Made by a program: the position numbers and the translations under genes. The notes below the pieces were generated by a model that saw only the letters and a list, made by a program, of their open reading frames with translations, made no database searches and was not told the origin of the DNA. DNA of 57,152 nucleotides, filler included, from Rhizaria sp. SCN 62-66 (lineage: Eukaryota): assembly GCA_001724265.1 (NCBI GenBank). It is 2 parts of 2 records of this genome, joined end to end, with 100 filler letters (N's around TTAATTAATTAA, not from the genome) between each part and the next. Parts side by side here need not be neighbours in the genome. Positions count along the whole stretch, not along the records: positions 1 to 28,574 come from MEDY01000386.1; 1 more part is not named here. One strand, given 5' to 3'. The stretch's first letter is position 1; every line of letters begins with the position of its first letter. Shown piece by piece: positions 7,028-49,835 of the stretch.

Positions 7028-7528
7028 GCGGGGACGCTGAACGGAGCCACTGAACGGGGACGCTGAGGGCGCGGGGGGCAAGACGGGGAGATACAACTAG
7101 GTGGGGGTGAGCGATACTGATAAAAAGGGGCCTGGAGTCTTATCAGGCCGGTCACCAGGACATCAACACGGAATGTGGACAGAGTTCGAAAAAGAGGCGC
7201 GCGCCAATGCGAATACATAAACGATCAAATTAGCATGATCAAATGTCGCTTTGCAATGATGTACCAAGTCGTTGGCTTCGAGGCGTTCGCCCAGGCGCAT
7301 ATTTTATTTCTTTACATGGCGTCCGAGTTCAGCAAAACCAGCGCCACGTCCGCGGATCCGATGGTTTGCGCGGGAGCGTCGATCAGTGCGTCGCGTAACA
7401 GCGACACCATCTGAGCCGCTAGTCCCCAGAGCTAGGACTCGGCGTCGCTATCGCGCCGCGGGACGAGCACGCGCGAAGTGAGCATTTGCTGTCGGTCCGA
7501 CGCGAGGAAGCGTGACACCAGCGATCTG

Positions 7529-8458
7529 TCACCCAGACAGCGTCAACAGCAGCTCCTGACACGCTTCAGCCTCGGAAGGCTCCAGCAGACCGATAAGCTC
7601 TTGCAGCTGCATCAGCACCGCCGATGTGAAGGCTGGCGTGGCAGTGCTGCCACGCCGCGCCCACTCGGAGACCGTCCGCACGATGCGCATTGCGGGCACA
7701 CGCGTGGCGCGGCTTGTAGTAGAACACTGAAGCACGTTGTGAAAGATGCTCTCTTCATCGCCGGACACGAGGTCTTCAAAGCGTACCCCTTCGCACTGCC
7801 CCTGAAACACGTAGGACAGCATGTTAAGCGCGTGCGTACGTGCCGGCAGGTATCTTAAAGCAGCGGCGAGCTGCGGCACGATCGGCGCGACGACACTGTA
7901 CACCAGCGGCGGCTATACACAGATACATGCTGCCATAGTCTTCGGAAGAACCTGATGCACCGCCGCGCCAACGTCAAGAGCTCCTTCGCCGTAGACCTCG
8001 GCCATGTACCGGCCCAGGTGGGCCACGACGCCGCGCTGGGCCAGCGTGTCGACGGCAGCGCGGCCGGAGCGCGCGATGCTGTCGAGAGTCAGAAGCGTGC
8101 TCACAGCAGTTATGCCTCGGAGCCGGTCACAGAGAAGCCGGTGAGAGAGCTTCTCCGCAATGCCGTGCTCGATCAGCAGGGCGCAGCCGCTGGCTGTGCC
8201 GGCCAGGTTGCTCAGCACCCAGAGCGTCCCATGCCTTAACCCAACGCTGTTCAAGCCAGAGGCCTCCAACAACCGCGCAAGCCAGCCAAGCACGTCGTGT
8301 TCGAGACAGAGCGCCAGGAGAGCCTATGCGGCGACGCCCGTTTGATCCGCGCTAACGGTCCTGAGTTCCTCAATTCCGTTGACAAGTCTGGCGGGCGACA
8401 GCGATGTCAAGTCCACTAGCGCATGGTGAAAATTGTTGTAGGAGAACGGAGAACTCAT
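7529..8458 (-). CDS. Divergent importin-alpha-like ARM-repeat protein (about 309 aa) with two in-frame TAG codons (8324-8326, 7913-7915); may be a pseudogene
   Basis: ORFs 8324-8506, 7913-8293 and 7529-7903 share one frame and are separated only by TAG. ARM-like motifs: HDVLGWLARLL...TLWVLSNLAG...LLIEHGI...LDSIA...QRGVV...PPLVYSVVAPIVPQLAAAL. Protein-like sequence continues in a shifted frame to TAA 7312. Confidence 0.55.
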
Positions 8459-9405
8459 CGAATGAAGTGCAGCGTGCGATACAAGACGGAGGTATAATTC
8501 CAACAAGTCTTGTAATACGCTTCACCAAACGTCCCGTGTTGCGTCACAGACCGTTATTGTGCGCAAACCTGAAGAGATAAGGCGAGGAAAATAAGAAAAC
8601 ATGTGTGAGGGAGAGAGTGGAGGTTCGAATTTAAAGTTTCTAGATTTTTGTCTTAAGTGGAACTTATTGAGAAATTTCTAGCAAATATACATCGTGTAAC
8701 AACATATATTATCGTATGGTAGTAAATTTAGCCCAATGTAGATGGGGAGTGCGCTGTTTGAGCACGAGATATGAACGATTGTGGCGCTTCTTCAACCACA
8801 GGACTAGGCATGACGATTGAACTCGTGAATTCACGGGGAAGATCAACGCCCCAAGAGAAATCAATTTAGTACAACATATAAATCTTTCTGTGAATCGTAT
8901 TTCATGGCTTACATTTACATATACACTTGAAGGCATTCTATGAACTGCATTTCGATAAGGAGCTTGTTCGTTACCTCGATTGTGGTCGGCAAGAACTTTG
9001 AATCATGCCATGTCAATGTGATCGTCAGATCAGCTAGAATAGAAGTATAAACGTGGAAAGTTATTCTTGTATAAAATTGTCTTTTGATATAACTAAGTAA
9101 CATGTACATCTACCCCAATCACTCAAGGTGGCTGCTCTCAGTGTCACATCAGTAACACTCTGCATGAAGCCACAATCTCGAGTGGGAAACATGCCTCAAA
9201 CTTTGTCACCGTCTGTAACGAACTGCGGCAAAGTACTCAAACTCAAGCAATTATCGAACATTCAGAGCCACACGGCATCATAAACCAGAAAAAGAAGCTT
9301 TCGAAGTCATGATAGCGTACACTTTAAGTCACTGCTTCGTTTCAAGTTGTTTCTGTCACTTTGATTTGAGCTTGCTATTGATGATTGCCTTTACGCTTTG
9401 ACGTT

Positions 9406-11442
9406 TCACTGCTCCTGAGCCTTCGCTTCACCACTTTCAGCATCTCCGTCTTCATCTTCGTCTCGGCCGCCCTCATCGTTGTCACTGCCACCGACTTCGT
9501 CGCTTTCGCTCTCTTCCTCGTCTTCGTCGACAGCGTCGCTCAAACCCTCGTTTGCATCCTCACTCGGCCGCTAGCTTCGGCTGTTACTGCGACTTTCATC
9601 TTTGCCTTCGTCGCTCGCAGGACCACTACTCGTGCTCTCGCGAGCCTTCGTGCTGCCTACAGTCTCACTTTCACGGCCGTCATGGTCATCATCATCAGCA
9701 TCGCTCTGAGAGCCTGAGTCAGATCCGGAGTCAGATTGCGAGCCAGAGCCAGAGTCGGAGTAGTCCTCGTCCTCGTCCTCATCCTCATCCTCGTCCTCGT
9801 CCTCGTCGTCTTTATCCGCTCTCTCGCGCGCCGCGGCCTGCTCCTTGAGGATTTTCACCACAACCTCTTTGAGCTCGTTGTCGTTCATCAAAATGAACTC
9901 GATGTGTTTCGGTGTGATCACCGTTCCCACCCCAGCGCCAGCGCCGCTGCCGGACTCCCCGCCGCCGCCGCCGCCGCCGCCAATGTTGCGCCGCGCAACC
10001 TGTCCCGCCAGGTCGAGCACCTCGGTGGCGATGTACTCAAGCACGGCGGCGAGGTAGATAGGCGCCGCGCCGCCGACCTTGCCGCCGTAACGGCCGTTCT
10101 TGAGCGCGCGGTGCGTGTGCGCGATGCTGAAGCCCAGCCCGGCCTGCGACTCGGCCTTCTTGCCCGCCGCAGCGGTCGCCGCGCCGCCGCTGCTGCCGCT
10201 GCCACTGCCGCTCGAAGCGGCGTTTTTGCGGCGAGACGTGCTCGAGTTGTCACTAGAGCTAGAGCTCGATTTAGCGCTTGCGCTGTGAGTATGGTTCATG
10301 TTGTTGTTATTATTCAAGGGGAGGCCAAGAGCAGAGAGCAAGTCGTGCGCGTTTGCTCTGGTGTTGTCGTCGCTGCCACTGGGCACGATGCCCGCTGCTG
10401 CCGCGGCGGCCGCGATCGCGTTGGCCGCGGCAGCTGTCCCTCCGGTCGAGTCCACGCCGCCCACGTCTCCGCCGCCGCTGGCCTCCTTGCGGCTACGCTT
10501 CGCTTTGTGGGCGACACTGCCGTCGCCGGACTTGCTGCTCGGTTTAGAGGACGATTTGGTTCTTGCGGCGTCCTTTGAGCTTGATGCAATGGCGTTTTTG
10601 CTCTGCGTGCTTGATGAGCCCGTCTGCAATGAACGCTTTTTGCGACTGGCTTCGTCGCTCGCAGTAGCGCCCGTGCTTGTGCTGTGCGTTCCAACCAAGG
10701 CCGCCGCAACACCCGCACTGCTCGCCGCGCGACTACCGTGACTGTGCACCGCTGCAGCCGTGCTGTGACCGCGACTCTGACTCTGACTGTGGCCGTGGGC
10801 AGAGGCAGCTGGGGCGCTGGGGCGACCGTGGGTGGCGTACTGTAGCGGGTTACGAGCGAGATACGGGCTCGGCGGCGGCTGCTGTTGCTGCTGCTGGGCG
10901 GGGTAGCCGTGGGCAGCAGCGGGGTACTGTTGGTAGGGAGGGTAGTACTGCTGCTGCTGCTGCGGATACTGATGAGGGGGCATCATGTGCTGCTGATGCT
11001 GCGGGTACTGCTGCTGCTGTGGGGGGTAGTAGTACGGCTGCTGCTGCGGCGGCGGCCCCTGCGGCGGCATCATCTGCTGCCCCTGATGATACTGTTGATG
11101 CTGGTGAGCGTACTGCTGATGCTGCTGCTGATACTGATACTGGTATGCAGGGCCTTGCGGCGGGCCATAGTATTGCGGAACGTACGGGTATCCATGCTGG
11201 GTGTGCGTGCCCGCGCCCGGGTAACTGTGCGCAGCGTGCGGCAGAGCGCCCGCGCCCGGTGCCGGGACGGGCGCGGCGGCATGCGCAGCAGCAGCGACTG
11301 CGGCTGGGGCCGGCGCGGGGTGCGGGCCGCGGGCGTCGTGTGTGGGCGGAACATGGCTGTTGTAGGGCGTAACGCCTGATGCGCCAGGAGGGTATCCACC
11401 TTGGTATCCCATAGAGGGCGTGTGGGGCGGAGGACCTGACAT
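9406..11442 (-). CDS. Histone H2A-fold protein with Q/Y/P prion-like N-terminus and long acidic C-tail; 678 aa if TAG 9571-9573 is sense, 623 aa otherwise
   Basis: AGLGFSIAHTHRALKNGRYGGKVGGAAPIYLAAVLEYIATEVLDLAG...ITPKHIEFILMNDNELK is an H2A core (about 9841-10162). The acidic tail continues past the TAG (RPSEDANEGLSDAVDEDEEESESDE...) to TGA 9406-9408. Confidence 0.85.
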
Positions 11443-11965
11443 AAGACGCGCTGATGTCGGTGGCAGGCTTGGTGAAGTGTCCCTTGGTGTGTGTCGAAAG
11501 GGGCTACTAGGCAGAGGGGTTTTCAGAAGAAGGACGTGAGGTATAGAGTAAATTCAATTGATACAGATTACCTAAGACAATATTGTAAAATATATTCGAG
11601 TAACCCATCATAATGAGCTCATTGATGCCGTGAGAGGCTGCGTTGACGACAGTGCACGATTCGCGAACCACAGATTGCGGTGACCGCGCGAAATCAAGAG
11701 CAGCCAGAATTCCCTTATTTCCCACCAGGATTCCGCGCTAGAATCCGTCACTGTCATTCCTAGCACGAGATTCAAATTTCACCATACAAATCCATCATAA
11801 CACGAAAATTATATGCTTATATCCGACATATTTGATATTCTATTTCAATTTTTGTTTCTTCCTCAGAGCGCGTGTTGCCACCCTAACGGTCACTCTTCAG
11901 CCTCAATCGTCACACTCTGCAATTGCACTCAGTACCACCAGCACTCTTCCGACTGTATTGCCGTG

Positions 11966-14900
11966 ATGCGTCCAACATTTCCCGAGCGCCCCGGCTCCGC
12001 ATCAGTCCATGGGGATCGGTTCGGCGCCCTTCCAGCCCGCGCGCCGCTCTCAGCCCACACAACCACCACCAACAGCAGCAGCAGTAGCTCTACTCGTCCT
12101 GTCTCCGGCTCTACATCGGCGTACGGCGGCGCCGGGCCGCAGCTGCCGCCGTCGTCGCACAATCCCTACCTGACCTCTGGGTCGCTTGGGCTTGCTATCG
12201 CCGGCAACACGATGCGTCCCCAAACCGCGACATCGGCCTCAGGGGCGCCGCCTTCCCGCGCGAGCACGGCGGGCTCGACTGCTGCGGGTTATAGCGTGAG
12301 TTCGAGTGCGAGTGCTGCCCGCCCTAGCGCCCACGTGCAGCCATAGTCACGTCTTCCCTCAGCCTCTGCATCTGTTGCCACCACAAGCAACTCCACAAGC
12401 AACGCCACAAGCAACTTGAGTGGCAGCGGTGCTGGCGGTACTAGCGGTGTCAGCGGGTCTGCAGCGTTCGCGTCCGCTCTGGCCTCTCTTAAAGCGATGG
12501 ACGCCGGCAGCAGTAGCAGTGCGGCCCATGGTGGTGTCGGCGCCGCTGTCGCAAAGTCAAGTCGCCCTCTGTCAAACAACCCTTACATGAACCCGACCTC
12601 GAGCTCGAGACTGTACAACGACAGCACCGCGGTCGGCATGAGGCCCCCCGGCCCCGCTGTTCAACGAAGCACCAGCACCAGGAGCAGCTACAGCGGCTAC
12701 AGCACTGGCGCCGGCGTCGGTGTTGTCGGCACTGGCGCTTTATACCCCGTGTACAAGGGATACGACGATTACGACGTCGACAGTAGCACGAACGCGCATC
12801 ATCATCCTAGCGCCGGAAACAACGGCTCCGGTCTGCCCGCAAGCTCGAGTTCATCGGCAAGCAATCACCACTACGGCGTCGGTGCCTATGGCGCGGAGCC
12901 TGCGGCCGAACCCGAGGCGCCGGGCTACATGAGCGGCGGCGACGACGACGACGGCTTTGTCGGGACGTTTGCCGACGGCGCGGGCGCGTATGCGGGCAGC
13001 GCAGGCGGGTACGACGATGATGATAATGTCGTCGGCGGCGGGGCAAGTAAAAATCCTTACGGGTACGCTTACGACGATGACGCTGGGAATGTTCATAGCA
13101 ACAATTATAATGCTGATGATGGTGAGCAAAACGGGTACATTGATGACGGCGACGATCTAGAGAATAACGGCGATGACGATGAGTTCCCCGTCCACACCGC
13201 CACGCACATGCAGACGCAGCCGCTCGATCCACAACCTCGACACCAGCAACAGTCAGAGCGCGAGGAGCGGCAGTCGCAGCCACTGGCGGCGGGCCTCACT
13301 GTTGCGGACTCATTGTTCCGCACTCGCACGAACAACAAGAGCAAGCAGGGCGGCACTTACACTGGCGACACAGGTGCTTACCCAGAGGACGTGTTGAACA
13401 TGTCGGGGGCGGATATCGCTGCTTCACTTGACTTCATCGATGATGATGACAACGACGACAATCATAACAATGACTACAATGGCAATGCTCACCGCGACCT
13501 GCAAGGTGCTTACAATAGTGATGAAGGGCCTGACGCAGAAGCGACTACTTACATTAAGTCCACATCTAACGGCGTTAGGGGTCCTCACGCTTCCTCTTCT
13601 AGGGTTGCTCAAAACATCAGCTCGCAGTCGCAGTCTGAGGGCGAGGCCTGGCTCCGCGCCGCTGCCTCTGCCATCGGCACCACTTACGACTCCAGCGTGA
13701 ACGCGGCCAATACCGGTACGGGCGCCGCCGGCTCTGGCGCGAACCCCGGTGCCGCGGTGAGCGGCAGCGTCCAGGTGACCGTGAGCAGCTGGCTCTCGCG
13801 CTCCTCGGTGCTGCGCTCGATCGTCATGGCGGCCACCCAGGACGCCGCGGCGGCCGTGGCGCGCGCGTCGTCACGCATCCCCGAGCTCAAGGACGCCGAG
13901 CTCGCACACGTGCAAAGCAACAGCGCCAACAGTGTCAACAGCGTGAACTCTGGCCCTAACACGGGCTCCGGCTCTGGCCCTGGCTCTGGCCCCGGCCCCG
14001 CCTCGGCCCCCCTAGCCCCGGCGCTGGCGGCCGCGGGTGACGCGCTGCCCCGCGTCCGTGCCGTCCTGGCTTCCTCTCTCGCGCACACCGCCGGGCTGGC
14101 CCGCGCCTTTGCGCGGCTGGTGCGGCCCGAGAGCGCGCGCGACGACGACGCTTACGTCGACCTGGTGCAGACGCACCTGGACGCGCTCGAAGACAGCCTC
14201 GAGGACCGTAAGGCCGCGCTCGCTGCCGCGCAAGCCGGCGCCGCCGCCGAGGCTGCAGCGCTAGAGCGGGAGCTCCGCGCGCTGCTGGAGCGCACCGAGC
14301 GCTGGGACGCGCAGGTTGCCTCGGCCGCATCGGCCGCGGCGGCGGCGGCGGCTGCCTCGGCTGCGGCAGCGACGGGCACTGGGCAAGGGCAGCAACAGCA
14401 GCAGCAGAGTCGTGGTGCATCTGCGCTGTATGGCAACAACGACCAGACTGGCGCTGCTGCTAATGCTGATGGCGACACGAGTGCGCTTGACGCAAGCTTT
14501 ACTGACGATCGCAGCGGCAGCTCAGGGGGTGCCAATGGTAGCGCTGGCGGCGGTGGTGATGATGAGGACACCGACCAAGGCGGCCTGACTTCCGTCATGG
14601 CACGCATGCGCGCTCTCATCGACAGCATCGACAACACCGCTAACAGCGCTAGCGGCAATGCCAGTGCCCCTGCGAGTGCGTCAAGCGCGCTCAACTCGAG
14701 CAACCCCGCCATCGCCGCCGCCGCTGCGCACGGCCAAACGGGCGGCTGGAGCAGCGAGGATCACAGCGACTTCCTTCATGCGATTGCGGGCGCGCCGTTC
14801 GCGGCCGCCACCGCTGCCGCCGCCGCTGCCGTGGCCGCGGCGTCGCTGCCGTATGTGCCGCGCTCGGAGCAAAGCGCGGAGAGTCTCAACACGAGCCGAA

Positions 14901-16513: not shown

Positions 16514-19500
16514 TTATGAGAAGAAGTATTTGGACTCGCGGATCTTGTTAAGGTCGAGCGTGCCGCGCTTGGGCACGGGCGGGAACTGCACGTGCGGGAA
16601 GCGGATCGAGAAGGACGTGTGCAGGTCGTCGAGAATGGGCTGCGAGTAGAGCTGGATGAACTGCTCGCGGAGCACCGTGTTCATGGTGTCGACGTCGCAC
16701 GCGTGCGCCCAGAACGAATCGTGCACGGACGAGAAGTTGAGTCCCTTCTTCTCGCACTCGATGGCCGTGGTCATCATGTGCGTCGCGTCGAGCGAGTGCA
16801 CGAAGTTGGGCGGGAACGCCGCCTTCTGCCGCGTCACCGACACCGGCAGCGAGTCGTTGTTGTCCGTCATGGTCACGTTCTGCATCAGCGTCCTGATCGT
16901 GTAGGCCGAATTCTTGCGGTACGGCTGCGTCACGGGCAGCCCCAGCGGCGTGACCCAGCTCACGGGCTGCTGCTCGCGCGCCATGAGGCTCGCGCACTCG
17001 CCCAGCCATCCCATGATGGACTTGGCGCCAGTGAAGACGGTCGACAGCGAGTTGAGCGTGAGGCGCGCGATGTACATCGACGCCTGGTACAGCGCGCGCT
17101 CCTTGGGGTCGGGCCAGTTGATCTCGCGCAGGTCGACGAGCTGGCGCATCACCTGCTCGCGCGCGCCGACGAACGTCACGCCGTAGACAGAGGTCATGAC
17201 CGTCTGCTTGACGACCTTGCGCGTGATGTGCGGCAGCAGCAGCTCCGCCAGCGGGTGGCCGTTGGCGCGGTCCTCATCCATGAGGACCTTGACCTGGGCA
17301 AGAACGTGTGAGTATACGTCCTGCGGCTTGTCGGCGGGCATCAGGTTCACGCGCGCACCGCCGAGCTCGTCGCGGCCCAGCGCGGCGTAGTGCTGCAGGC
17401 CGTTGCACGAACCGTCCTGGATATGGACGAAATAATGAGAAACATATAGAAGAGTGAGTTAACACGTTAGATAGACAAGAAAAAGCACATGAAGACATAC
17501 GTAGACGAAGATTGATCAAATTATTTTCTTCAAACTCCGATTATATTCGAGTGCAGTGGTTCGTACCTGGTGAACAGGGAGCGAGCAGCAGTACTCGGCC
17601 GGGTTGGGGCTGCGGACCGCGGCGGCAATCTCGAAGCACGTGGCGAGCGCCTGCCACGGTGAGTCGGCCGTCATCCACCACGGGATGAACTCCGAGTGCT
17701 CCTGGGGCGGGTCCAGCTCGCCGCGGGTCTTGCCGAAACGCGGGTTCGGCATCGACGCGAACAGCGGGTCGTCGGCAGCCTGTGCGGAATGTGAAAACGA
17801 AGAGAAAAATATGACATACAGTGAGATGCAAGATGTGATACGTGATGATTAGGACATTTAGAGATCCGACAACATCAGGATTTGAGAACAAGGAGAGACG
17901 TTGTACTGATCGTTCGTTATGCGACGAACCTGAAGGATTTTGTCGAGGTGCGACTTGGCGTACGCGACACGGTCATCGAACGAGATCTTGTCCACGCCGA
18001 ACTGCGCAGCCAAGTGCGCGTAGAGCCAGTAGAGCCCGCGCTCGCCGAGCGGGCGCTTCTCAGAGAACATGAGGATGCCACGAGACATGTCGGAACCCAG
18101 GTGGTTCAAGTGGGGCGGTAACGGGTACGCGCGGCCGCGGAAGTCCATGTTACAGGGGAAGTAGAGCTCGTAGTCCATCAGGGCGTCGGCCTGGTTAAGC
18201 TTGAGAATGACGTCGCACCGCAGCGAGTGCAGGTCCATGTTAGCCTAGGAACAAAAAAGGAATGAAAACAGAGTGGAGTGAGGAAAATGAGCATGTGAAA
18301 AAGATTTACACGTGTTTCAAAACAAAGTAAACAATTTAAATGCGTGTCCAAAATAAAAGCAACACGTTAGTGAAGGGGAATACTTCAGCTTTGAATACTT
18401 CAGCTTCATGTTTGTTTTGCTTCCGATTGCGACGCACCTGTGTGAGTTTCTGGATAAGCTTGTTGTGCTTGCGCATCTCCCGGTTGTACGCGCGCTGCAC
18501 GCGCTCGTTCTCCTCGGCCGTGTTCATCTCGTCCAGCACGGGCGCCGCCAGCGGCAGCGGGAGCGGAATGTCGACGCGACCCGGCAGGTCGGCGACGCCG
18601 CCGCCCTTCTCCCAAAAGGCCTTGACAACGTCGATGACCTGCTTGTTGACGCGCCAGGGCACGCGGCCCAGCACGTCGAGCGACTCGAACGCCGCGGGCA
18701 TGTCGGCGTAGAAGACCGCCTGCAGCTGCTTCGCGGAGCCCTTTGCGCGGATGGCCGTGTTCTGCACCGTGATGTACCCGCCCGCCTTGGGGCTGGACCA
18801 CGGCCGCGGGGGCACGACCATGGGCATGAGCTTGGGCCCCAGCCCGGCAATGAAGGCGTGGCCCTCCTCAATCATCGTCAGCACGTCGCGGTGGCAGCGG
18901 ATGACGCCGATGTAGTGTCCCTTCTTGACCGGCACGTACTCATGCAGAAACGCGAGCTCTTCCTGCGGGACGATGGACGTCGCGGGCCCGCTCTCGGCGT
19001 GATACTGCACCTTGTCCGCGATCGCCTGCGCCGCGAGCTCGGCCGCCACGACCGCGAGCTGCGCGTTGCCGGGCTTGTCGTTGATCTCAAGCGCGGTGCT
19101 GCTCGCGGCCGCATTCGTCGCAGCCAGCCCGTTGGAGGAGTCGGCAGAGGCAGCGCCGCTCACGAGCGCGGTGTGCTGCATGTTCTCGACATACTTGCGC
19201 GCGGCGCGGTCGATGGGCGACATGTTGTTGTCGAGCAGCAGCGCCGCCATCGTGGGCGCCACCTCCTTCATGTTGTTGTGCGCGGCCGCCTTGCCCTTTT
19301 TCTGGTTGTCCATCCGGATCGTGACCGTGTTCATCATGATCTTGAGCAAGCACGCGCCGACCTGCGCGCGCACCTGGTCTGACCACACCGAGTTGGACAT
19401 GAACTTGCGCGCCTTGATCATCACGCTGTCGGTCGTGCGCTGCCCCATCGGCAGCTGGCGGCGCAGCTCATCGTACGCCTCCTTGTTGCCCTTGATGAAC

Positions 19501-21149
19501 TGCATGTTGACCTCCGCGTTGACGGCGCGGCCGACCGCGACGGCGGCCTCGATGAACCGCACGCCGCCGGGCGACACGAGCAGGCGGTTAAGCAGCTCGT
19601 GCATCACCACACACGCCAGCTCCGACGCGCCAAGCGCCTGGATGTAGGGCCCGTAGACCTTGCGGCCCTCGCCGACGACCTTGTTCTCGACCAGCGCCTG
19701 CTCGTGCTGAATCGCGCGCGAGAGCGGCTCGAACCACGCCATGACAAACTGCTGTGCGGGCTTCAGCGAGGAGCCGCGGCCCATGCGGCTAAGCTCCTGC
19801 GACAGCTCGCGGTACTTAAGCACGGCGGCCGACACGGCGAGCGTCTCGTTGATCAGCTGCTGCTCGAATAGCCTCGGCTCCGGGTGCGTGCCCGTCTCGA
19901 TGGCGTACTGGCGGTACTCGCGAGCGATCTGCTCCTTGGTAAACATGGACCGCAGCAGCTCGTCCTTGTACTCGAGCTTGGCCATCACGGCCGCAGACTC
20001 GCGCTGTGCAGTGTCGATGACGGTGTCGATGTGCCGGATCGCCGCGTCGGCCGCCGCGAGCAAGTACGGCGTGCTCGTGAAGTCCACGTGCTCGCTCTTG
20101 CCCGTAAAGTGCACCAGCGCGGCGTCGATCTCGGTGTGCAGCGTGCGTTCGTCGAGCCGCACGACCTGGAACGGCGGCGGCGTGCCCGGCGCCAGGGCAA
20201 CCGAGTCATACCCACGTTGGCGGGCCGCCTCGATGGCGGTCTCGCTCGCGCCCTCAGGCAGCTCCGCCACGGCCTTGTCGGCGGCGGCGATGGCGTAGGC
20301 CGCGGCCTCCGAGCGGCGGCCCAGGTGCAGCAGCACGTGCATGGCGACGGCCGAACGGACCGCGCTGTCGATGGCGAAGGCCGACGACTGGTCGGCGACG
20401 TCCTTGGTGAGGATGAGCGCGGACCGCGCCGAGTAGAGGCTCGCCAGCGTGGGCTTGTCGCGCGGCGGAACAACGAGCGTCTGCAGTTCGTCGACGACCT
20501 GCGCGATCTCGAGCGCGGTGCGGCGGTCCAGCAGGTCCACCTCAGCCGACGCCTCCTCAGCGGTAGCCGCGGGCGGCGAGATGAGCGAATCCATAACGCC
20601 CGCCGGCTGCTGCGCCACCAGCTGCTCCGCGAACGCGGTCGCGTCCTGCATCCGCGAGTACGGCGTCGAGTTGGCGTCGCCGTCGCCGCCGCTGCCGCTG
20701 TTGTTGCCGCCTACATCCGCGCTGTCGTCGCCATTGCCTTCAGCAGCGGCGGCAGAGGAAGAAGAAAATGAGTCGTCGAGGTGCGGAAAGGAGTCGGTCG
20801 GGGGCAGGTTGTTGACGTAGTCGGAGTTCAGCGCGGGGCCAGAGAACGCACGCGCAGCGCCCTGCGTAGCCACACTATGAGTAGCAGTGCGACTGCTGAT
20901 GCTGTTGTTCTTAGGTATGGAGCCGAGAGCACTATTAGTGGCGGCATTGCTGTTGCTGTGACTGCAGCTGCTGCTGCTAATGAATACAGCGGAAACGGAC
21001 TGGAACGCGCGCGGGGCGGACGACGCAACTGAAGCTGCGACCGTGTTTGCAGTAGCAGCGGCAGTTGCGCTCGCGGTCGTGGCCGCAGTCGAGGCCGTTG
21101 CAAGGCTGTGTGCAAGGGCGCGACGACACGCGCGACTGAGGATACTCAT
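16514..21149 (-). CDS. POLRMT: T7/T3-phage-type single-subunit mitochondrial RNA polymerase, 1380 aa, exons 21149-18438, 18244-17930, 17779-17567, 17416-16514
   Basis: MPMVVPPRPW, NMDFRGRAYP, PVHQDGSCNGLQHY (motif A), RKVVKQTVMTSVYG (motif B), FPPNFVHSLDA, VHDSFW (motif C), C-terminal YFFS. The N-terminus is R/A/S-rich, like a mitochondrial targeting peptide. Confidence 0.97.
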
Positions 21150-22156
21150 GCTGCTGTTGTGGAGAGTGCTGCCAGAGACGCAACAGTGTAGAGATGAGAG
21201 TGAGGACGCGAGTGCGGGTGCGACAGCTGCTGCGGCTGCGGCGGCTACAGAGGTGGGGGCTGCTGCGGCGACGGCGGAGAGCGGGAAGCCAAAGCAAGCG
21301 CGGGACAGCTACAATCAAAATAGAAACTAGAAAACGTGCCCTAAAACAGGCGCGGTGTGCTGTGGCGATCAAGTGAAAGGGGGGATATCAGGAGACGTGA
21401 GTTTAGGGGCGAGACAGAACCCACAGTAAGTGGGCGTGAGAGCGTGGGGCAGAGGCTCTGTCGCCATAGAGAGACCGTCTATAGTGATATCAACAAAGGA
21501 GCATATATAAAACAGACGATTCTTCAATAAAGATATAAAAATATGACACTCTGGCACGGTATACACTTGCAATGCAAGTCATGTGCGAGGCCGGACTTGG
21601 GCTTCGGTCTCAGTCGGAGTCTCCGCCATTTTTCGGTCCGTCAGTCGAGGGTCCGACAAGTTGTGCTTTGGCAGCAGATAGCAGCATGAAGACATTTACA
21701 TGTTGAACAAAAAGAAGTTTTGCCAACGGGCTTAAGATATGTAAGTGTATTTTTCACGTTTTACACGCGAGGTCAGCAGTCCACACGCCAAACAGTCAGC
21801 GAGGGACGCGTGAGCACATACGCAGTACAAGCAGGATACAGACTAGACAAGACAGGAAAGACGAGAAGAAAAGATAAAAAGAAAAGAAAGATTCTACTAT
21901 GGGTAACATTGGACCTTACAATACATCACATTGCTTTCGTTTGTTTGGCTGCATCATGCTTGGTGACCAAGCGCAAACACAAGTACGCTAAGTAAGAGTC
22001 GCTGATATTTTTGCTGATATTTTTGTTATGTTTTTTTTTGCGGTGGCGACCACGCGCGCTAGCTGATATCCTCATCACTAATTACACGTGTTTACGGAAG
22101 AGATATGGCCGTCTAGCTCGCGGTGTTTTGCTCTCACCGCGCTTAGTCGTCGTCGC

Positions 22157-23211: not shown

Positions 23212-23791
23212 CTCAGCGCGCTGTTGGGGGCACAAGGACACGTGGGAGGAGGGCGAACGATGGCGAGGAGAAAGAGTAGTTCGGGAGTGAGAGGTAGAGA
23301 AAATCAAAGTAAGTATTGCACAACAAGACGCACTCCAATAGCCACATGGAATAAGAAAAAGAGTACTGACTCAACTAACAGCCATATAACAGGAATACAT
23401 AGCATTCCAACGACGGTAAGGTATCAAACTGCGATGTCGTTTCGTCTTACTTGACCACTTGAGAAACGGCGGTTCGGCAACGATCGCTCGGCTCGGTCTG
23501 GTTCTTAAAAAGTGCTGCGAAATTTGACTTGGACGGGTATCTTCAAAGCAAGATATCGCCGTCTTGCGCGCGTCAATAGCGAGTTTGACTGCATGATAGT
23601 CTTGAAGCCTTTCCGCTAGCTCTAGATATTCGTTAAGATTTTCATAACCAACCCGTCTTTGTCGTCTGCGACCCTGCCTCAGCGCCTTGCTGACGCGGCT
23701 GTCTGCACTTGCTCTGCCTACTTACTCGCTTCTCGTCTCACCTTCACACTTTCATGTTCCACCCTTATTTTGCGCTTTACAGCCCCGTCCC

Positions 23792-25513
23792 ATGGCGAGC
23801 TACGTCCTCACGTACCTGCTGTGGCTCTTCGGCGGCTTCTGTGGGCTGCACCACATCTACCTGGGCCGCACCTCGCACGCCTTTCTCTACGCCGCCACCT
23901 TCGGCTGCCTCGGCTTCGGCTGGCTCCACGACCTCTGGCGCATTCCACAGTACGTGCGCCAGGCCAACTCGGAGCCGCACTACATCGAAGACATGAAGGT
24001 CCGTGCCCGCAATCGCCCCAACACGTCCCTCGCGCGCGCCACGACGATGTTCTTCGTCGGCTCCGTCTTCAGCCGCGTCGCGCTGGCGCCCGTCGGCTGG
24101 CTCGAGCCACTGCCATCCCTGCTCTCCCCACTTGCCAGCGCCTACCTGGGCTCGCTGTCCCCGCTTTTCACGCCCCCCGCGGCCGCCTCGGCTCCCGGCG
24201 CGTTCCCCGCCGGCCCCATCCCCCTCTGGTGGCCGCTGCTGACATCGCTCGTGTCCGCGCTCGGCGCCGGCGTCGGGGTGCTCACGGTCGGCTCCGTCGG
24301 CGGCCAGCGCACCGTGAACCGCTACTACGTGCTGCTCGCCGCCGTTGTCGGCTCTGTCGTTGACGCCGTCGTCGTCGCCATGGGCGGCTCAGACGCCAGC
24401 GACCTCTCGAGCGAGATGCAGGCGCTCCGACTCATTTTCCCTATCGTCGTGTGGGCCCGGTCCTGCGAATGGGTGCCCACGATCCTCCACAGGCACGCCG
24501 TCGCCGCGCTTGCCAGCAACAGCGTACCCGCCGCCGCCGCGCTGAGCCCCAGCATCAACAGTAGCGACAGCGGCAGCAGCAACAGCGACGCGTCGGGCGT
24601 GACTGCTGCTGCCGCGGGCGGTGCTCAGTCGCTCAACGCGCCGCTGCTCTCTGCCTCATCAAGCGGCGCTTCGGACGATGATAACGTGTCCAGCTCGAGC
24701 TCGAGCGCTCTTGACGGCGGAGGCTCTGCAGGCCAGCGCCGCTGCGATTTCCCCCGTCGCCTCTTCACTGTGATTCTGTCCGTGACGGCGTTCTGGGGCA
24801 TGTGCGGCCTCTACGTGTATCATTACGTGCCCATTCCGACCGACTCGGACACACAGTACGCCGCGGCCTCAGCCGAGTACGCCCAAAGTAACGCCCCGGG
24901 GGCCGGCGGCAGCGCGGCGCCCGAGTACTACAATCACGACAACGCTCAGCAACAGCAGAAGCAGCAACATCAGCAGCAGAAGGCGAAGACCACGCCGCCG
25001 CAGCCTGACGACAAGGACGAGGAGTTCTACGACTACTTCGGCTTCGACTATAACACGCGCAACGCGCGCACAGCCCCGATGCGCGTCAAGGACGTGCTGA
25101 TCCGGATTCGCCGCTCGCGCTTCTGGTCCGACGCGGCCACCTACATCCCGCAAATCCTTTACACCGTGCATCGTGACGGGTTCGGCCGCGCCTGGGACGA
25201 CCTGGTGGGCACCATGGATCTCAACGGCGGCGAGTGGGCATTTAACGTGCTCGGGCTGGAGGAGGCCTCGGCGACGCGCCGCAGTGCGCGCAAGCGGCGC
25301 GGTGAGCTGGCGCTCAAGTGGCACCCGGACAAGAACCCGGCCGAGCGCAAGAAGGAGTGCGAGGAGAAGATCAACGAAATCAACGAAGCGTACAAGATTG
25401 TCGAGGAGGTGCTCAGCAAGAGGGAGGCCTCCGGTGCCGGTGCTGCTGCTGGCGCTGACGCTGGCGCGGCGGGTGCTGGCCGCGCGAGCCGCAGGAACAA
25501 GGACGAGTTGTGA
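23792..25513 (+). CDS. DNAJC22: DNAJC22/Wurst-like TM2-domain, multi-TM J-domain protein, 573 aa
   Basis: N-terminal TM2 motif TYLLWLFGGFCGLHHIYLGR...GWLHDLWRIPQYVRQAN, hydrophobic helices, and C-terminal J-domain AFNVLGL...LALKWHPDKN...EINEAY. Confidence 0.88.
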   Translation: MASYVLTYLLWLFGGFCGLHHIYLGRTSHAFLYAATFGCLGFGWLHDLWRIPQYVRQANSEPHYIEDMKVRARNRPNTSLARATTMFFVGSVFSRVALAPVGWLEPLPSLLSPLASAYLGSLSPLFTPPAAASAPGAFPAGPIPLWWPLLTSLVSALGAGVGVLTVGSVGGQRTVNRYYVLLAAVVGSVVDAVVVAMGGSDASDLSSEMQALRLIFPIVVWARSCEWVPTILHRHAVAALASNSVPAAAALSPSINSSDSGSSNSDASGVTAAAAGGAQSLNAPLLSASSSGASDDDNVSSSSSSALDGGGSAGQRRCDFPRRLFTVILSVTAFWGMCGLYVYHYVPIPTDSDTQYAAASAEYAQSNAPGAGGSAAPEYYNHDNAQQQQKQQHQQQKAKTTPPQPDDKDEEFYDYFGFDYNTRNARTAPMRVKDVLIRIRRSRFWSDAATYIPQILYTVHRDGFGRAWDDLVGTMDLNGGEWAFNVLGLEEASATRRSARKRRGELALKWHPDKNPAERKKECEEKINEINEAYKIVEEVLSKREASGAGAAAGADAGAAGAGRASRRNKDEL

Positions 25514-26099: not shown

Positions 26100-27137
26100 T
26101 CACTGGTTGTTCATGGCGGTGGCGTCCTTGATGATCGCGTCGACCATTTGCTTCCACTCGCCCAGCACGGGGTGCTGCGCCGCCCCGGGGATGACGTCCC
26201 AATGCAGCACAGCGGCCATGACCGCGGCCGTCAAGACAAACGCAGACACCAACGCCAGCGCCTGGCCCAGCCCGCCGCAGCAAGAGCCCTGCCCGCCGCC
26301 GTTGCCGCTGCCAGGCGCGCAGCCGCGCTGGTTCTTAACGGCGTCGGCCGCATCGTCGGTGTCGTACGGCGCGCGCGCCAGTGAGGCCTTGTTGCCGCGC
26401 TTGACGGCCGCGCCCGCGGCGGCGGAGCTTTTGGGGCGCACGGGCACGTTGCTGCTGTCGTCGCTGTCGTCGTCGTGGACATGGTCAGAGGTGTACCCGA
26501 CCGCCTTCTTGATGACGTCGTTTTCAACGACGTAGCCAGGGCACGTTAGCAGGAACTGACGCAGGTTGCCCAGCGCGGCCTTGGTCTCTCCGGCCCAGGG
26601 CCCGCCGGTGAGCGCAGAAAATTTGACGCCGAAGTCCGCGAACGAGATGCTGTTGTTGGGCGTGTTGGACACGATGCGCTCGATCGCCTCCAGAGCCTTG
26701 GCGCGGGAGGTGACTTTGCCGAATTTCTCGACCTTGCGGGGCTCAGGGCGCCACGGCTCACCGCCCTTGCTAACGCCGCTGCTGCTAGAAGCGGGGGCGG
26801 CGGGCTTCCTGGGGACCGCGAGCCGCTTGAGCGCGGCTTTGACCTCGGGGTAGGTCATCGCGTCGGCGTTGAGGCTTGGCGCGAGGCGGGCCAGGCGCGT
26901 GCGCTGGTCAGCCTCTTCCTGTACAAAGTAAGCAAAAGAACATACACGCAAGAAATGTATATATTTGTGAGAGCCTGACTCAATGTGAAATCTATCTTAT
27001 GCTTTGTTGTTGGCATTCATGTTGTCGGTTGCTGAGTCACTAAGTGGACGTACCTGGGCAGCGTTGGCCTCCTGGCGACTGGTGCCGCGGCGATTGTTGT
27101 TCACGGGGATAAACTCACCCTCATCGTCGCTCGACAT
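26100..27137 (-). CDS. Hypothetical 300-aa protein with a possible LOTUS/OST-HTH-like winged helix and a C-terminal TM helix; exons 27137-27054 and 26918-26100
   Basis: Phase-0 CAG|GTACGT...CAG intron. ISFADFGVKFSALTGGPW...LGNLRQFLLTCP.YVV resembles a winged-helix/LOTUS pattern (inference). ALALVSAFVLTAAVMAAVL is TM-like. Confidence 0.6.
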
Positions 27138-28574: not shown

Positions 28575-28674
28575 NNNNNNNNNNNNNNNNNNNNNNNNNN
28601 NNNNNNNNNNNNNNNNNNTTAATTAATTAANNNNNNNNNNNNNNNNNNNNNNNNNNNNNNNNNNNNNNNNNNNN
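28575..28674. other. Artificial contig-joining linker (44 N + TTAATTAATTAA + 44 N)
   Basis: Exactly 100 nt with a palindromic 12-mer that places stops in all six frames. Genes on either side are cut off. Confidence 0.95.
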
Positions 28675-36200: not shown

Positions 36201-37290
36201 CCGCGACTCGACAAGGCGGATCGCGCCGCGGCGGAAGAACTGGTTCGGGCTCGCGCCCCACAGCGCGGGACGACGCGTCATGTGGCGGGCCCACGGCCGC
36301 TCTTCGTACGACCGCAGCGACAGCAGATCTGAAAAGAAAAATTTGGCGTGGACGCAGACTTGGCCAGGCAGCGAGAGCGACTCGATGTCGGCCTCGATCA
36401 GACGCTCGTGGTAGTACGTCTTTTCGACCTCGTCCGGGTCAATGAACTCTGTGAAGTCGCACACATAGTCGAGCAATAGTTACGGTAGAAACATGATGCA
36501 GCGATAACAGAAGCGAAAAAGAGTTAAAGTAGAAAGTTTGAAAGAAGATTTGTAAGAATAATTGGCATAGAGTCGAATGAAGCGCTATGCAGCGCAAGCG
36601 CAGTGCAGCGCGGCTCGGTATAGTACAGTATGATATGATGCAGATATAGCGAATGCACAGCGGGAAGGGGCAGGCAGGCCGCTGCGCGAAGGCTCCGCTT
36701 GGGCGCTCGCCACTGGCAGCGCCTCTCTCTGAGTCCGTCACCGAAGCGTCCGACATGCGCAGTCGCAGGCACGGATGCAGCAGCAGCAGCGGCGGCGCCA
36801 CGGCACGGAAACGGCAGGGAAACGGCTGCGCGGCTTGCAGCGTGCACCGGCCGAGCCAGAAGCTGTGAGTTTGCAGAGCACGCGCGGAAAACAAGTGCAA
36901 GAAGCTGGAGCAGCGTGCAGGCAAACGCGCGCATGCGAGCGAGCGGGCCCCAACGCGGGCAGTCGGAGTGAGGGACGGCGCCGCTTCCAGAGCCGCAAGA
37001 GAGCGCGGGCAAGGACCGGCCGAAAGAGGGGCGGCGGCGCGGGGCAGAGGTGCGGGCAGGGGCAGCGTGGATAAAAAGGCGTGGAAAAACTCTCACGCGG
37101 GTTGGGAGGCGCGAGATAAGACAGCCCCGCGAGGCGCGAGCGCGTGGGAGAATAGAACGAGCGAGACTGGAGGATATGAGGCGAAGCGCGCCTCGAGCGA
37201 GGAGAGAAGAAAGCACGCACCTGATGACTTGACCACAGGGTCATTTGAGGGGAACTCCGCATCTATGGCGGCCGGGTCTTTGGGTTGCAT
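30234..37290 (-). CDS. Four-domain voltage-gated Ca2+/Na+ channel family alpha subunit, about 2094 aa, exons 37290-37221 and 36448-30234
   Basis: Four 6-TM repeats with WNWLD/FNIVD/WNVIE/YDRAD S3 starts, S4 R-x-x repeats, P-loops SRDGW, TGENW, TTDGW, TTEDW and S6 LNLFIAVLL. The exon 1 donor G|GTGCGT and acceptor CAG|AG restore the frame (Glu). Confidence 0.93.
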
Positions 37291-40200
37291 CCCCTCAACC
37301 CTGGGACGGGAAGGAAAGACAAGTCGGAATGAAAGGAGAGAGTGATGAGTGGGTAAGGTTCGGTTTGACAGTGCACATGAATGAACCAAAGCAACGCCAA
37401 GTAGTTTACCCACTAGCTTTTAAAAGTAATAACAAGATACAACACATCAGCTTTCTGCTATATTCAAAGTTACTTTTTGTGAATAACGGTCTATAACCCG
37501 CTATCTCCCGCCGTCCGAAATGACAGTAGCTCCTTCGAAGCTTTGCTTCATTGCCACCCGCCGCCGACCGTGGTTCGCAAAAAAGGCGACCGCCACTTGT
37601 TGGTATCGAACAAAATAAATGCTGCCACTTGATATAAACATATTCTTGGTCGACATGTTTCGTTTGGATAATCACAAGCAGTCTCGTACTCTGTGATATT
37701 TTTGTTCACTTTATGACACTCGGTTAAACCGCCAAAGTGACAGCAAGGCTAGAATGAGTACTTGAATATCTACGGCATATAAATCGGTCCAGTTCGTTAT
37801 AATCCTGCACATAGGGTCTATCATTTGAATATATTACATTTTTTAGTCTGATATGAAAGGTTTCCAAGTCACATTGGTTTTGCTACCAATTATATTTCTG
37901 CCACCACCAATATGATGATGCTACTTTCAAGTTTGTTGACAACACTCGCAATTTAACATTGTACCCACACTCTCAGAAGTTGAAACACAAACTTTTACAC
38001 GGCCAATACATTGAAGCAACAAATAATATCCTATTTTCCTCGTGATAGCTGTTCGATCGTCATCATATAGTTTTGCACAGTAACCTGTGACAGTTCCACG
38101 TGGCAACAACAACGACGCCTAGGTTCATCACTAAAAGACGTTTTAGCTTCTACAGACATGAATTCCAATTTATAGTCATCATATAATAACGGTGTTTTCG
38201 AATTATTTTCTTTTTTTTCTTCTAAACTATTTCCTTAGACAAGTAAAAGTAAGACTTGATTCAAAAACAAAAAAACGGGAGCAATAATTTATACACTATT
38301 TTTATATAAAATTTTTTCTGAGGCGCTCTTTTGAGACTGCAATTACTGTGCTTTTTAAGATGAAGATAAATGCCAAACATAATTAAATTGGGATATATTT
38401 AATGTTGAATTATTATCAAACTAATAAAAACGTTTCTTTAAGTGTAGGTAATGTCTACAAAGATATATTCTATTTTATATCATATTGGCGTGTCACATTA
38501 TGCTAACAGAGGGCTCTGTGCAGCCATTATTGCAGTGATTTCAAATTCATAAAGACTCCGTTCGCATTAACGACCGCTAAACACTCTATTAACGTTAGTT
38601 ATAAAGCATTAGCAAACATATCATTTGATCCATTGGTGCACAAGACCGAGCTGCGATTGACCAGTGACATCGTATGAGCTGCGACAGCCACAGCAAAGGA
38701 ACAACAGATCTGCTGTTGTGTTCTGTGTGAAGGCGATACTAACAAGAAATAAGCAACAGTAAGGTCTTGCACAGATTGTCACAGTCATTTATACAAAAAT
38801 ACATTTTGTATTGACGGTCTCTTAGAAGAGCTCGTGCAACATCGGAAGTTCTTTAGACTTCTTGATTAGCGTTCACGTACGCTTAAAGATTTGTTTATTG
38901 GTTTCGTTTCAATCAAAATGCGTTTTATATTTGCCTTGTGTTACGAAAAGGACTGACAAATTTACGCTGACCCCGGCTTACTTTGTTTTCCTGGCTCGAG
39001 GGATGAAGGCATGGGTTCCGTCGTTTCAACATTGATCTACAATGTATTACCCGAGGTTATCGTTTCACCACGACAAAAGAGATTAATTTTTAAATTTTAG
39101 AAGCCAAAAACCAATTGTACTTAATCATTGTTTAAAAAGCTAGGAGTCGCGATTATGACGTGAATTTCATTGGCGCAAATCCGGAGTCAAGCGGCCCGTG
39201 CGGGACGGAAAAGCTGTCTTTTGTTTCTCACTGCGGGGCGGGACAACGCGCTTGTGCGGTTAGTGTTGAAGTAAGTGTAACTAACAATCACTGTTGCTGT
39301 GAATACATTTGCACCCAGGGCTATTCCGCTGCGTCCGCGGATGAGGACCAATAAGGGGCACCAGGTTCCTGTTCTGGCACTTATGCGGGTGGGTCGGTAC
39401 ACGCGTATCACGTCGTTTTTGAACATCAGCAACATGCATGCTCATAGCACAACGGGCACTAAGAGCGCACGCCGGTGACAGCTGCCTTACCAATTGAGGT
39501 TCCAGTGGGCGTGACAAAGTTGTTTTCAAGCTTGTAGGCTCTGTAGAGGTAGAATGTGTTATATCGAGTTTATGGGGACGTCCTGCCTTGCCAAAATGAC
39601 TCAAGAATTGCAACTGCAGTCGTCGCAATCTCCGTGAGGGCCATATATAGCGAGCATCGCTGACCAGGATCGAGTTATATCTGTCAGCAGGAGTTCAAAG
39701 TGTTTGTATTAATAGTGATGGACCGTCATGAAAAAAACCGGGTCACTAAGATTATATGTACAGAATAGGCGCTGAGGCGCAAAAGAAACCTAAAATAAGA
39801 TATAGAAAAGCAATTCTAAAGGAACGGTGCTGAACCCTTTAACATAAGAATATCGTGCCAATTTTAAGACGAGATCACGACGTAACTTGTTTTGAAGGAG
39901 TGTCCTTTGAGGAGGAATTGAAAAAGATACTGTGGCGTCAAGTCCAAGCAGTGAAATGAGCTATTATTTATCTCAGTTATAGACCACACAAAAAGTAGAT
40001 TAAATAGGTTTGCAGGCAATTCTACCACGTAATTACGGCATGGAAGCTGGAAAACCATGGCGCAGATCCCGGAAAAAACTGGTGGTGAGCGCACTCTTTC
40101 CATATTTCCGGCAAGATAAGGAGTTGTTGTCCGATACCCCCCTCTACACTCGACAATTGCAGTATCGTGAAAATCTTCAATATATTATCAGATTCTCTGT

Positions 40201-40430
40201 TCAGTGCGTTCATGACCAGGGTCAGACAAAAATGAATGCTGCTTTCCCGAATCCGAAGACAAAACTTCGATCAAAATATCAAATAACACCATGTATACTT
40301 TAAATTTTATATAAGTGTACAAATCTGGTACGGACCCGTGCTTGTTTTTGAATTTTTTTTTAACCTCACCGAGTTTCATTGAGAGTACCTGCGTGAATCA
40401 GCTATGTGTCGATTCCGGAAGACTTGAACA

Positions 40431-40504
40431 GCCCCATTAGCTCAGTTGGTAGCAGCGTACGACTTTTAATCGTGATGTCACGGGTTCGACCCCCGTATGA
40501 GGCA
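40431..40504 (+). tRNA. tRNA-Lys(UUU), slightly atypical
   Basis: Cloverleaf: acceptor GCCCCAT/ATGAGGC (one C.A mismatch), A-box TAGCTCAGTTGG, anticodon stem TACGA/TCGTG with loop CTTTTAA (TTT at 40465-40467), T-arm ACGGG-TTCGACC-CCCGT. Confidence 0.9.
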
Positions 40505-40507
40505 ACC

Positions 40508-40516
40508 TTTTTTTTT
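40508..40516 (+). terminator. Pol III oligo-T terminator
   Basis: Run of T starting 3 nt after the tRNA 3' end. Confidence 0.8.
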
Positions 40517-49263: not shown

Positions 49264-49835
49264 ATGGCGTCGTTGCGCCAGAGCCTCTGGGACAACTACC
49301 AGGTTCGTTACAACCCCTCCCTCTCTCTCGTCTTTTGGCTCGTCCCTAGTCCCTTCGCTCACACTTCTTTCTTTCCCGCTTTTCCTACAGGCTCTGGACC
49401 AGGACACTGAAGTCTTGATTGGCGCGTTGCTGCGCGACATCGACGTCCTTACGCGCGGCGACGAGGCGACGTTTCTGTCGTATCAGGGCCCGCTGCGTGA
49501 GTCGCGCAACCGCACGCGGTACCACACCAACCCGCCCATCTCGTGCTACGACGAGCTCAAGCAGTGGCGCACGCTCCGCAAGGACACGCGCGCGCTCGCC
49601 GCCGAGGCAGCACCCGACGCCGCCGCCGCGCCCGCGCGCTGCCCCCGCCACAGCGGCAGCCACAGCAACAGTCTCAAGCAGAAGAGCAATGCTCGTGTTG
49701 CAAGCGTTGATGCGAGTATCATTTCTACTGTTGCGCCCGAGCACGTGCTGATCGGCCCCGCGCGCGCCTAGCAGCCGCCGGCGCTGCCGCAGCAGCTCTC
49801 CGTGTCGTCCACGACTACCGACGCCCCCCTCGACG

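Follow-up and report, generated by a model that had tools for sequence, protein, structure and literature searches.

In-frame TAG codons in the genes of a GC-rich sludge eukaryote and the probable reading of UAG as an amino acid

The H2A-like gene and its acidic tail

The DNA studied here is a stretch of 57,152 nucleotides (nt) from the assembly GCA_001724265.1, deposited as Rhizaria sp. SCN 62-66, in which two records are joined by filler; it is called the window in the following. On its minus strand lies a gene for a long protein with a histone fold of the H2A type, whose reading frame meets a TAG within an acidic C-terminal tail and continues beyond it with the same character. The initial annotation regarded this TAG as the clearest single example of a UAG that is read as an amino acid. 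In the direction of transcription, the gene comprises the following features.

10156..11442, minus strand: long N-terminal extension, first rich in Pro, Gln and Tyr, then rich in Ser, Ala and Lys
9838..10155, minus strand: histone fold of the H2A type, in which a Gly-rich segment of about 20 residues separates helices 2 and 3
9574..9837, minus strand: acidic and serine-rich tail ahead of the TAG, 88 codons
9571..9573, minus strand: in-frame TAG in the acidic tail, followed by the base C
9409..9570, minus strand: stretch of 54 codons past the TAG, rich in Asp, Glu, Ser and Gly, which keeps the frame and the character of the tail
9406..9408, minus strand: TGA in the context TGA A, likely the true terminator of the gene, with a TAA four codons on

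Translation of the minus strand from 10299 to 9403 gives ...KDESRSNSRS, the TAG, RPSEDANEGLSDAVDEDEEESESDEVGGSDNDEGGRDEDEDGDAESGEAKAQEQ, the TGA and then N, and with X for the position of the TAG the residues on its two sides are ...SNSRS-X-RPSEDANEGLSDAVDEDEEE.... The TAG at 9573-9571, the 54 open codons at 9570-9409 and the TGA at 9408-9406 had all been annotated before, and each of them is exact to the base in this translation. Ahead of the TAG, the frame extends from stop to stop over 660 codons (9571..11553). The protein probably starts with the ATG at 11442-11440, and it would then have about 624 residues up to the TAG and about 678 up to the TGA.

The assignment to the H2A fold, likewise made in the initial annotation, is well supported by a phmmer search against the chains of the PDB, in which the best hit is a histone H2A (E 1.3e-18); there were 223 distinct chains at E <=1, and all 60 that are listed are H2A. 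The alignment covers residues 30-105 and 126-154, which correspond to helices 1-2 and to helix 3. In Pfam, with its models for histones and for the H2A C-terminus, neither the whole protein nor the fold taken by itself matched any family, even at E <=1. Compared with histone H2A, the protein shares sequence similarity from alpha1 to alpha3, but it has about 678 residues where the canonical size is about 130, it carries a low-complexity N-terminal extension of 420 residues and a Gly-rich insert in loop 2, and it lacks the docking/C-terminal motif ...GVLPNI.... An alignment with the protein P0028 and with rotifer H2As shows that the docking/C-terminal segment ...GVTIAQGGVLPNI... is replaced by KILKEQAAARE, after which the acidic tail begins. 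The rotifer H2A-like proteins P0029 to P0031 also possess an acidic C-terminal run.

P0028, which is known from a metagenome only, is an orthologue: its fold is 51% identical, its loop 2 contains the same kind of Gly-rich insert, and it carries an acidic tail. Among four matches in a protein search at shorter lengths it was the only orthologue, whereas none of 5,043 candidates of 372-1,187 amino acids was a homologue, and an exact look-up of two possible forms of the protein found neither in the protein collection. Scanning viral contigs with P0028 confirmed no relative among 151 pattern matches. A scan of genome contigs with the H2A-like alignment left two weak loci out of 33 pattern matches, with E values of 1e-4 and 8e-4; one of them, L003, reads as an ordinary high-GC bacterial contig. 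The window protein and P0028 thus delineate an H2A-fold family with a Gly-rich loop 2 insert of 20-40 residues, no docking motif and long acidic tails, of which the window member is fused to a Pro/Gln-rich N-terminus of 420 residues.

The 54-codon open frame behind the TAG is by itself not significant, as 11.6% of 20,000 mononucleotide shuffles are open as well. Its composition is far more telling. Aspartate and glutamate together account for 46% of the residues in frame and for 4% and 8% in the other two frames, and none of 20,000 shuffles of the post-TAG bases reached the in-frame value. Ahead of the TAG, the same two residues make up 40% of the tail, so that the continuation of an acidic tail of the same character, as initially described, is borne out. 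The same holds for the view that the composition changes only past the TGA, since the guanine plus cytosine (GC) fraction amounts to 0.58-0.59 between the TAG and the TGA and drops to 0.40 over the next 150-162 nt. The in-frame acidity and the GC fraction indicate that the post-TAG stretch codes for protein in the frame of the preceding tail, or did so until very recently.

The TAG at 9571 is real DNA and no slip of the assembly. A contig from a second study (X3) spans 9131-9789 without any difference and contains the TAG, and a contig from a third study (X4), which stems from a strain of about 0.7% divergence, spans 7642-9792 with 15 differences, none of the 14 listed falling in 9571-9573. 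Contigs from a poly(A) RNA library (X5) cover 10005-10269, 10307-10641 and 10928-11192, that is, the 5' two-thirds of the gene; none of those listed crosses 9406-9573, which is uninformative either way.

In-frame TAGs and gene ends across the window

The long GC-rich open reading frames (ORFs) with AT-richer spacers between them and the spliceosomal introns show that the window is nuclear DNA of an uncultured, GC-rich, intron-bearing eukaryote. Six in-frame TAGs were found in its coding stretches, and they fall in four genes. Those outside the H2A-like gene are listed here, together with a frameshift point that bears on one of these genes.

49769..49771, plus strand: in-frame TAG directly after codon 139 of a gene that begins with the ATG at 49265; 2,319 open codons lead on to a TAA at 56729
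12344..12346, plus strand: in-frame TAG 126 codons past the ATG at 11966; 1,068 open codons follow
8324..8326, minus strand: first in-frame TAG of the ARM-like gene (7315-8458); the alignment with homologues keeps one frame before and after it
7913..7915, minus strand: second in-frame TAG of the ARM-like gene, within the conserved motif V-x-PPLP[FY]
7432..7434, minus strand: third in-frame TAG of the ARM-like gene, in the frame that is in use after the shift
7529..7534, minus strand: GGG TGA, point of a +1 frameshift in the ARM-like gene (tblastn frames -2, then -3)

The strongest case in the window is the gene at 49265. Its ATG opens a first exon of 13 codons, which is followed by an intron of 87 nt (49304-49390) and by a second exon that starts at 49391 and reaches the TAG after 126 codons. 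The intron boundaries, CAG/GTTCGT...CTACAG/, carry the same signals as the introns of the RNA polymerase gene, and past the TAG the GC fraction is as high as 0.81. In the gene at 11966, the sequence behind the TAG keeps its Ser/Ala/Thr-rich character, and the TAG is kept in the second-study contig, which shows no difference, and in the third-study contig, which shows one (at 12493). At both of these TAGs, the in-frame codon score is the best of all six frames on either flank. The rank of clearest example that the H2A tail had been given belongs to the gene at 49265, with its 2,319 open codons; the gene at 11966 is a stronger case than the tail as well, which is still a fair example.

Window-wide, 14 coding stretches with a total of 11,885 codons contain six TAGs, no TAA and no TGA in frame. 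This set was defined with TAG allowed and TAA and TGA excluded, and tests that do not make this assumption consequently matter more. For such a test, a codon log-odds model was trained on the seven Pfam-supported stretches (6,899 codons) and applied to all stops with open flanks, which were required to have the in-frame score as the best of six frames on both sides. With flanks of 40 codons, 2 of 58 TAGs passed (12344 and 49769), compared with 0 of 46 TAAs and 0 of 149 TGAs. With flanks of 60 codons, a TAA at 26997 and a TGA at 48529 passed as well, the former inside a consensus intron and the latter with a negative upstream score. The TAGs of the ARM-like gene receive no support from the codon model.

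The converse question is which stops end genes. Stops that are preceded by 40 open codons with a best-frame coding score number 24 (10 TAA, 12 TGA and 2 TAG). A GC fraction of less than 0.5 follows ten of them, none of which is a TAG. Of the two TAGs, one is that at 49769, past which coding continues, and the other, at 6962, is antisense to the Psf2 gene. No coding region of the window ends in TAG, although the sample of about 10-15 genes is small. Gene ends that are anchored by homology use TAA (the RNA polymerase, ...KYFFS) or TGA (...KDEL). Over the 150 nt past the confident TAA and TGA ends, the GC fraction is 0.33-0.48, with the exception of Psf2 (0.61), whose end is overlapped by a convergent gene. 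Over the same distance past each of the six TAGs it is 0.58-0.81, and the coding composition continues past every one of them. The next base also differs: it is A or G after the real stops (7 of 7), and C, T, C, C, G and C after the six TAGs. The TAGs at 7432, 7913, 8324, 9571 and 12344 are identical in the second-study contig and have no listed change in the third-study strain.

The ARM-like gene belongs to a family of at least 12 homologues, all from metagenomes, with 33-43% identity. An exhaustive HMMER search with its protein returned 16 proteins, three of which are its own fragments, cut at the TAGs by gene callers. Two of its TAGs, at 8324 and 7913, can be aligned; several homologues run colinearly past both, and the two columns opposite them contain D, R, K, Q, A and T, W, Y, E, Y, D, T, S, T, K, S. 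Scored with BLOSUM62, the two columns rank Gln, Lys and Glu first and hydrophobic residues last, a weak hint from which polar residues (Gln, Lys or Glu) would seem to fit the aligned UAG columns best.

Some further observations were made in this family. Six homologues share one start point in the alignment, where they use an alternative start codon; it looks as if a stop or an intron had cut them off upstream. The nearly identical, metagenome-only relatives P0003 and P0018 (248 residues) stop exactly where the 449-residue P0017 has a Glu, in a column that is Glu or Asp in eight homologues. This suggests an in-frame stop in a relative, possibly a UAG that stands for Glu. A scan of viral contigs with P0017 confirmed no relative among three pattern matches.

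Explanations for the in-frame TAGs

We consider it probable that in this nuclear code UAG is decoded as an amino acid, whereas UAA and UGA terminate. A transfer RNA (tRNA) with the anticodon CUA would presumably read UAG, and translation would end at UAA and UGA. The H2A-like protein of about 678 residues would then be read through the TAG at 9573-9571, gain 54 more acidic residues and stop at the TGA at 9408-9406. That ribosomes read UAG at all, by which means (a tRNA, an altered eRF1) and with which inserted residue, we infer from the DNA. A sense UAG explains at once the open frames, the frames shared across the TAGs, the fixation of the TAGs and the want of genes that end in TAG. For the TAG at 9571 this means that the sense reading first proposed for it stands as the best explanation of the window as a whole, with six in-frame TAGs and no gene end in TAG, whereas two kinds of local evidence, the codon score of the tail and its divergence in the third-study strain, do not support it.

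A number of findings weigh against a sense UAG. With a standard code, the TAG at 9571 would be a true stop and the 54 codons a relic, left after a fairly recent nonsense mutation (for example of GAG, CAG, AAG or TCG) had clipped a dispensable acidic tail; the other TAGs would belong to an ARM-like pseudogene, to upstream ORFs or to similar truncations. About 65% of random nonsense mutations with the codon usage of the window would yield TAG, the commonest outcome here, and six TAGs out of six consequently have a p of only about 0.08. TAG is absent from the Pfam-supported stretches with their 6,899 codons, its overall frequency is low at about 0.5 per 1,000 codons, and all six TAGs sit in low-complexity or weakly conserved sequence. 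No tRNA(CUA) was found in the window, whose sole tRNA is a tRNA-Lys(UUU); a gene for eRF1 is likewise not in the window.

The comparison with the third-study strain is also unfavorable to a sense UAG in the tail. In the post-TAG stretch, 3 of 162 nt differ, namely 9494 (V>A) and 9526 together with 9528 in one codon (D>N), and both altered codons thus change the residue. The non-coding DNA at 8459-9405 differs at 7 of 947 nt, a density similar to that of the post-TAG stretch, as would be expected if this stretch were a relic. Just ahead of the TAG, the tail has one difference, which again alters the residue (E>G). From these changes before and after the TAG, the acidic tail appears to be weakly constrained on both sides, and the differences past the TAG are compatible with weak constraint or with none. 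The codon model gives the frame of the tail no preference before or after the TAG, because antisense frames of Ser/Ala-like composition score higher; this poor score would equally suit a standard code. An alignment with orthologues had been proposed as a check. The fold of P0028 can indeed be aligned, but its tail cannot be aligned residue by residue, and its length of 103 residues lies between the 88 and 143 considered here.

The ARM-like gene adds further doubt. Its frame after the shift ends at a TAA at 7312, about 100 residues short of its relatives, and the site GGG TGA C shows no gap in the second- and third-study contigs. Judged from its sequence, the gene may be a pseudogene, as its degraded appearance would have it under a standard code, or it may use a programmed +1 frameshift at GGG TGA C. 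The frameshift and the early end make it a doubtful witness for a sense UAG, and three of the six in-frame TAGs sit in this possibly dead gene. The residues opposite its alignable TAGs vary, and no single meaning of UAG is shown by them.

We nevertheless think that a standard code is an improbable explanation for the window. It needs truncations in 3 of about 15 genes within 57 kb, in addition to a pseudogene, and it has to accept that 1,068 and 2,319 codons were cut off and are still perfectly open. The ORFs before and after a TAG would have to share their frame every time, and the TAGs would have become fixed in at least two sampled populations. Neither the complete lack of a TAG gene end nor the high GC fraction that persists past every TAG is accounted for.

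Somewhat less probable still is a UAG that acts as a leaky or context-dependent stop, with programmed or position-dependent readthrough, in which case the H2A-like gene would yield a short form that ends at 9574 and a longer form that ends at 9409. Among the bases that can follow a stop, C provides the leakiest context for eukaryotic termination, and C follows the TAG in four of the six cases. A leaky stop would also suit the rarity of TAG, its avoidance in conserved genes and the position of the TAG at 9571 near the 3' end of its gene. However, two of the TAGs come early in very long ORFs, close to the 5' end, where partial termination would waste most of the product, no TAG acts as a plain terminator in the window, and the six contexts have no common signal beyond the next base.

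It is very improbable that the TAGs are artefacts of assembly or sequencing, or that RNA editing or a tiny intron removes them from the message: this was considered because of the metagenomic origin of the DNA and the two runs of N elsewhere in the window, no point in its favor was found, the second-study contigs match without differences, the third-study strain keeps the TAG, and the window introns, which are AT-rich, measure 87 to about 190 nt and start with GTNCG, a signal that does not bracket the TAG. A short intron around the TAG at 9571 was rejected on length, composition and frame, as the only GT...AG pairs there span 17-23 nt and splicing by them would break the acidic frame. Short introns at the other in-frame TAGs were rejected for the same three reasons.

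The organism and other UAG codes

The sequence of the window occurs in metagenomes from bioreactors, wastewater and activated sludge (several studies). The genes recognised in it code for a phage-type (mitochondrial) RNA polymerase (RPOL_N, RNA_pol), the GINS component Psf2, a four-domain voltage-gated cation channel, a family-8 glycosyltransferase, a TM2-DnaJ protein with a KDEL end, and TPR and WD40 proteins. Spliceosomal introns of 87 to about 190 nt, all AT-rich, interrupt the RNA polymerase gene, the gene at 49265 and a gene at 27136. They share an unusual 5' signal, CAG/GT(G/T/A)CG(T/A), and the 3' signal YAG/ (16514-21308 on the minus strand, 49304-49390 on the plus strand and about 26925-27052 on the minus strand), and a TAG at 18247 is the 3' splice site of the first RNA polymerase intron.

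Several other features of the window deserve mention. At 23789-25513 (plus strand), one protein joins a TM2 domain through a long low-complexity spacer to a DnaJ domain and has KDEL at its C-terminus. The gene of this TM2-DnaJ protein and the channel gene end in tandem stops, TGA AGT GAC TGA and TGA AGT GCG TGA, respectively. The region 37000-43800 is AT-richer (GC 0.35-0.52) with few long ORFs, and it contains the tRNA-Lys(UUU) at 40431-40504. Two runs of 44 N (28575-28618 and 28631-28674) mark the filler joint of the two records, with short ORFs around them on both strands.

A metagenome scan with the RNA polymerase exon found a single relative among 52 pattern matches (L001), a contig of 2,550 nt from the same organism with 100% identity. 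Atlas neighbours provide leads only: those of the RNA polymerase exon are RNA polymerases of phages or plants, and those of the ion channel are channel clusters of haptophytes or oomycetes.

Nuclear codes in which UAG alone has changed its meaning have been described before. According to PMC5304391, UAG codes for Leu in the rhizarian exLh (Sainouroidea), in which UAA and UGA are stops, and 384 in-frame UAGs in 71 genes fixed this meaning by their conserved positions. The same paper describes UAG as Gln in the fornicate Iotanema spirale, which keeps UAA as a stop, and a predicted tRNA(CUA) in both organisms (PMC5304391). As far as this account goes, the window shares with exLh that UAG alone is affected, that UAA still is a stop and that the inference is drawn from in-frame UAGs in otherwise intact genes; it differs in having six UAGs in about 11,900 codons, none of them at a conserved position. 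Leu is moreover not favored here, as hydrophobic residues fit the aligned columns worst, and nothing ties the window to the Sainouroidea. Iotanema spirale, as described there, shares the UAG-only change with the window, and Gln is among the residues that fit best here. The window differs from it in being GC-rich and in encoding a phage-type RNA polymerase, which in eukaryotes is the mitochondrial enzyme. To our knowledge, the mitochondria of fornicates are reduced and without genomes, which would make a close kinship unlikely.

Among ciliates, PMC10553269 gives UAA as Lys and UAG as Glu for Oligohymenophorea sp. PL0344, and PMC11687900 describes codes of phyllopharyngeans that split UAG from UAA. 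As these accounts describe them, such split codes have in common with the window that UAG has a meaning of its own, independent of UAA. The window differs from ciliates by its GC content of 45-77%, its long genes, its introns of 87 to about 190 nt and its use of TAA as a stop, and on these grounds it is not ciliate-like. Ciliates are common in activated sludge, and their macronuclear genomes are AT-rich and have tiny introns. The window resembles these UAG cases in the way its code would work, and it is set apart from them by a very low frequency of UAG and by a GC-rich, intron-bearing genome with TAA stops. A full-text literature search returned no published case of an activated-sludge eukaryote that reads UAG; a giant-virus catalogue (PMC13524828) has no bearing on the window.

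The code of the window is a probable addition to the small set of UAG-only changes in nuclear codes, which are of a rare kind. Going further, we lean somewhat towards the view that this is a UAG-only sense code in a GC-rich eukaryote of sludge and bioreactors, used about 0.5 times per 1,000 codons and at weakly constrained sites only, which would represent an early capture of a stop codon, independent of the rhizarian, fornicate and ciliate cases; the GGG-TGA-C of the ARM-like gene would then possibly be a +1 frameshift at a stop.

Gene callers that apply the standard or the bacterial code cut proteins at TAG, and the annotation of eukaryotic contigs of this lineage from wastewater would thereby be systematically wrong. 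The ARM-like gene, which is split into three fragments in the database, is an example of such a misannotation. Few nuclear codes assign different meanings to UAG and UAA, and each new split code tests ideas on how stop codons are captured, including the origin of the tRNA(CUA), the specificity of eRF1 and the role of GC pressure. If the reading proposed here is true, a UAG that is rare and confined to unconstrained sequence would reflect an early stage of stop capture in this lineage.

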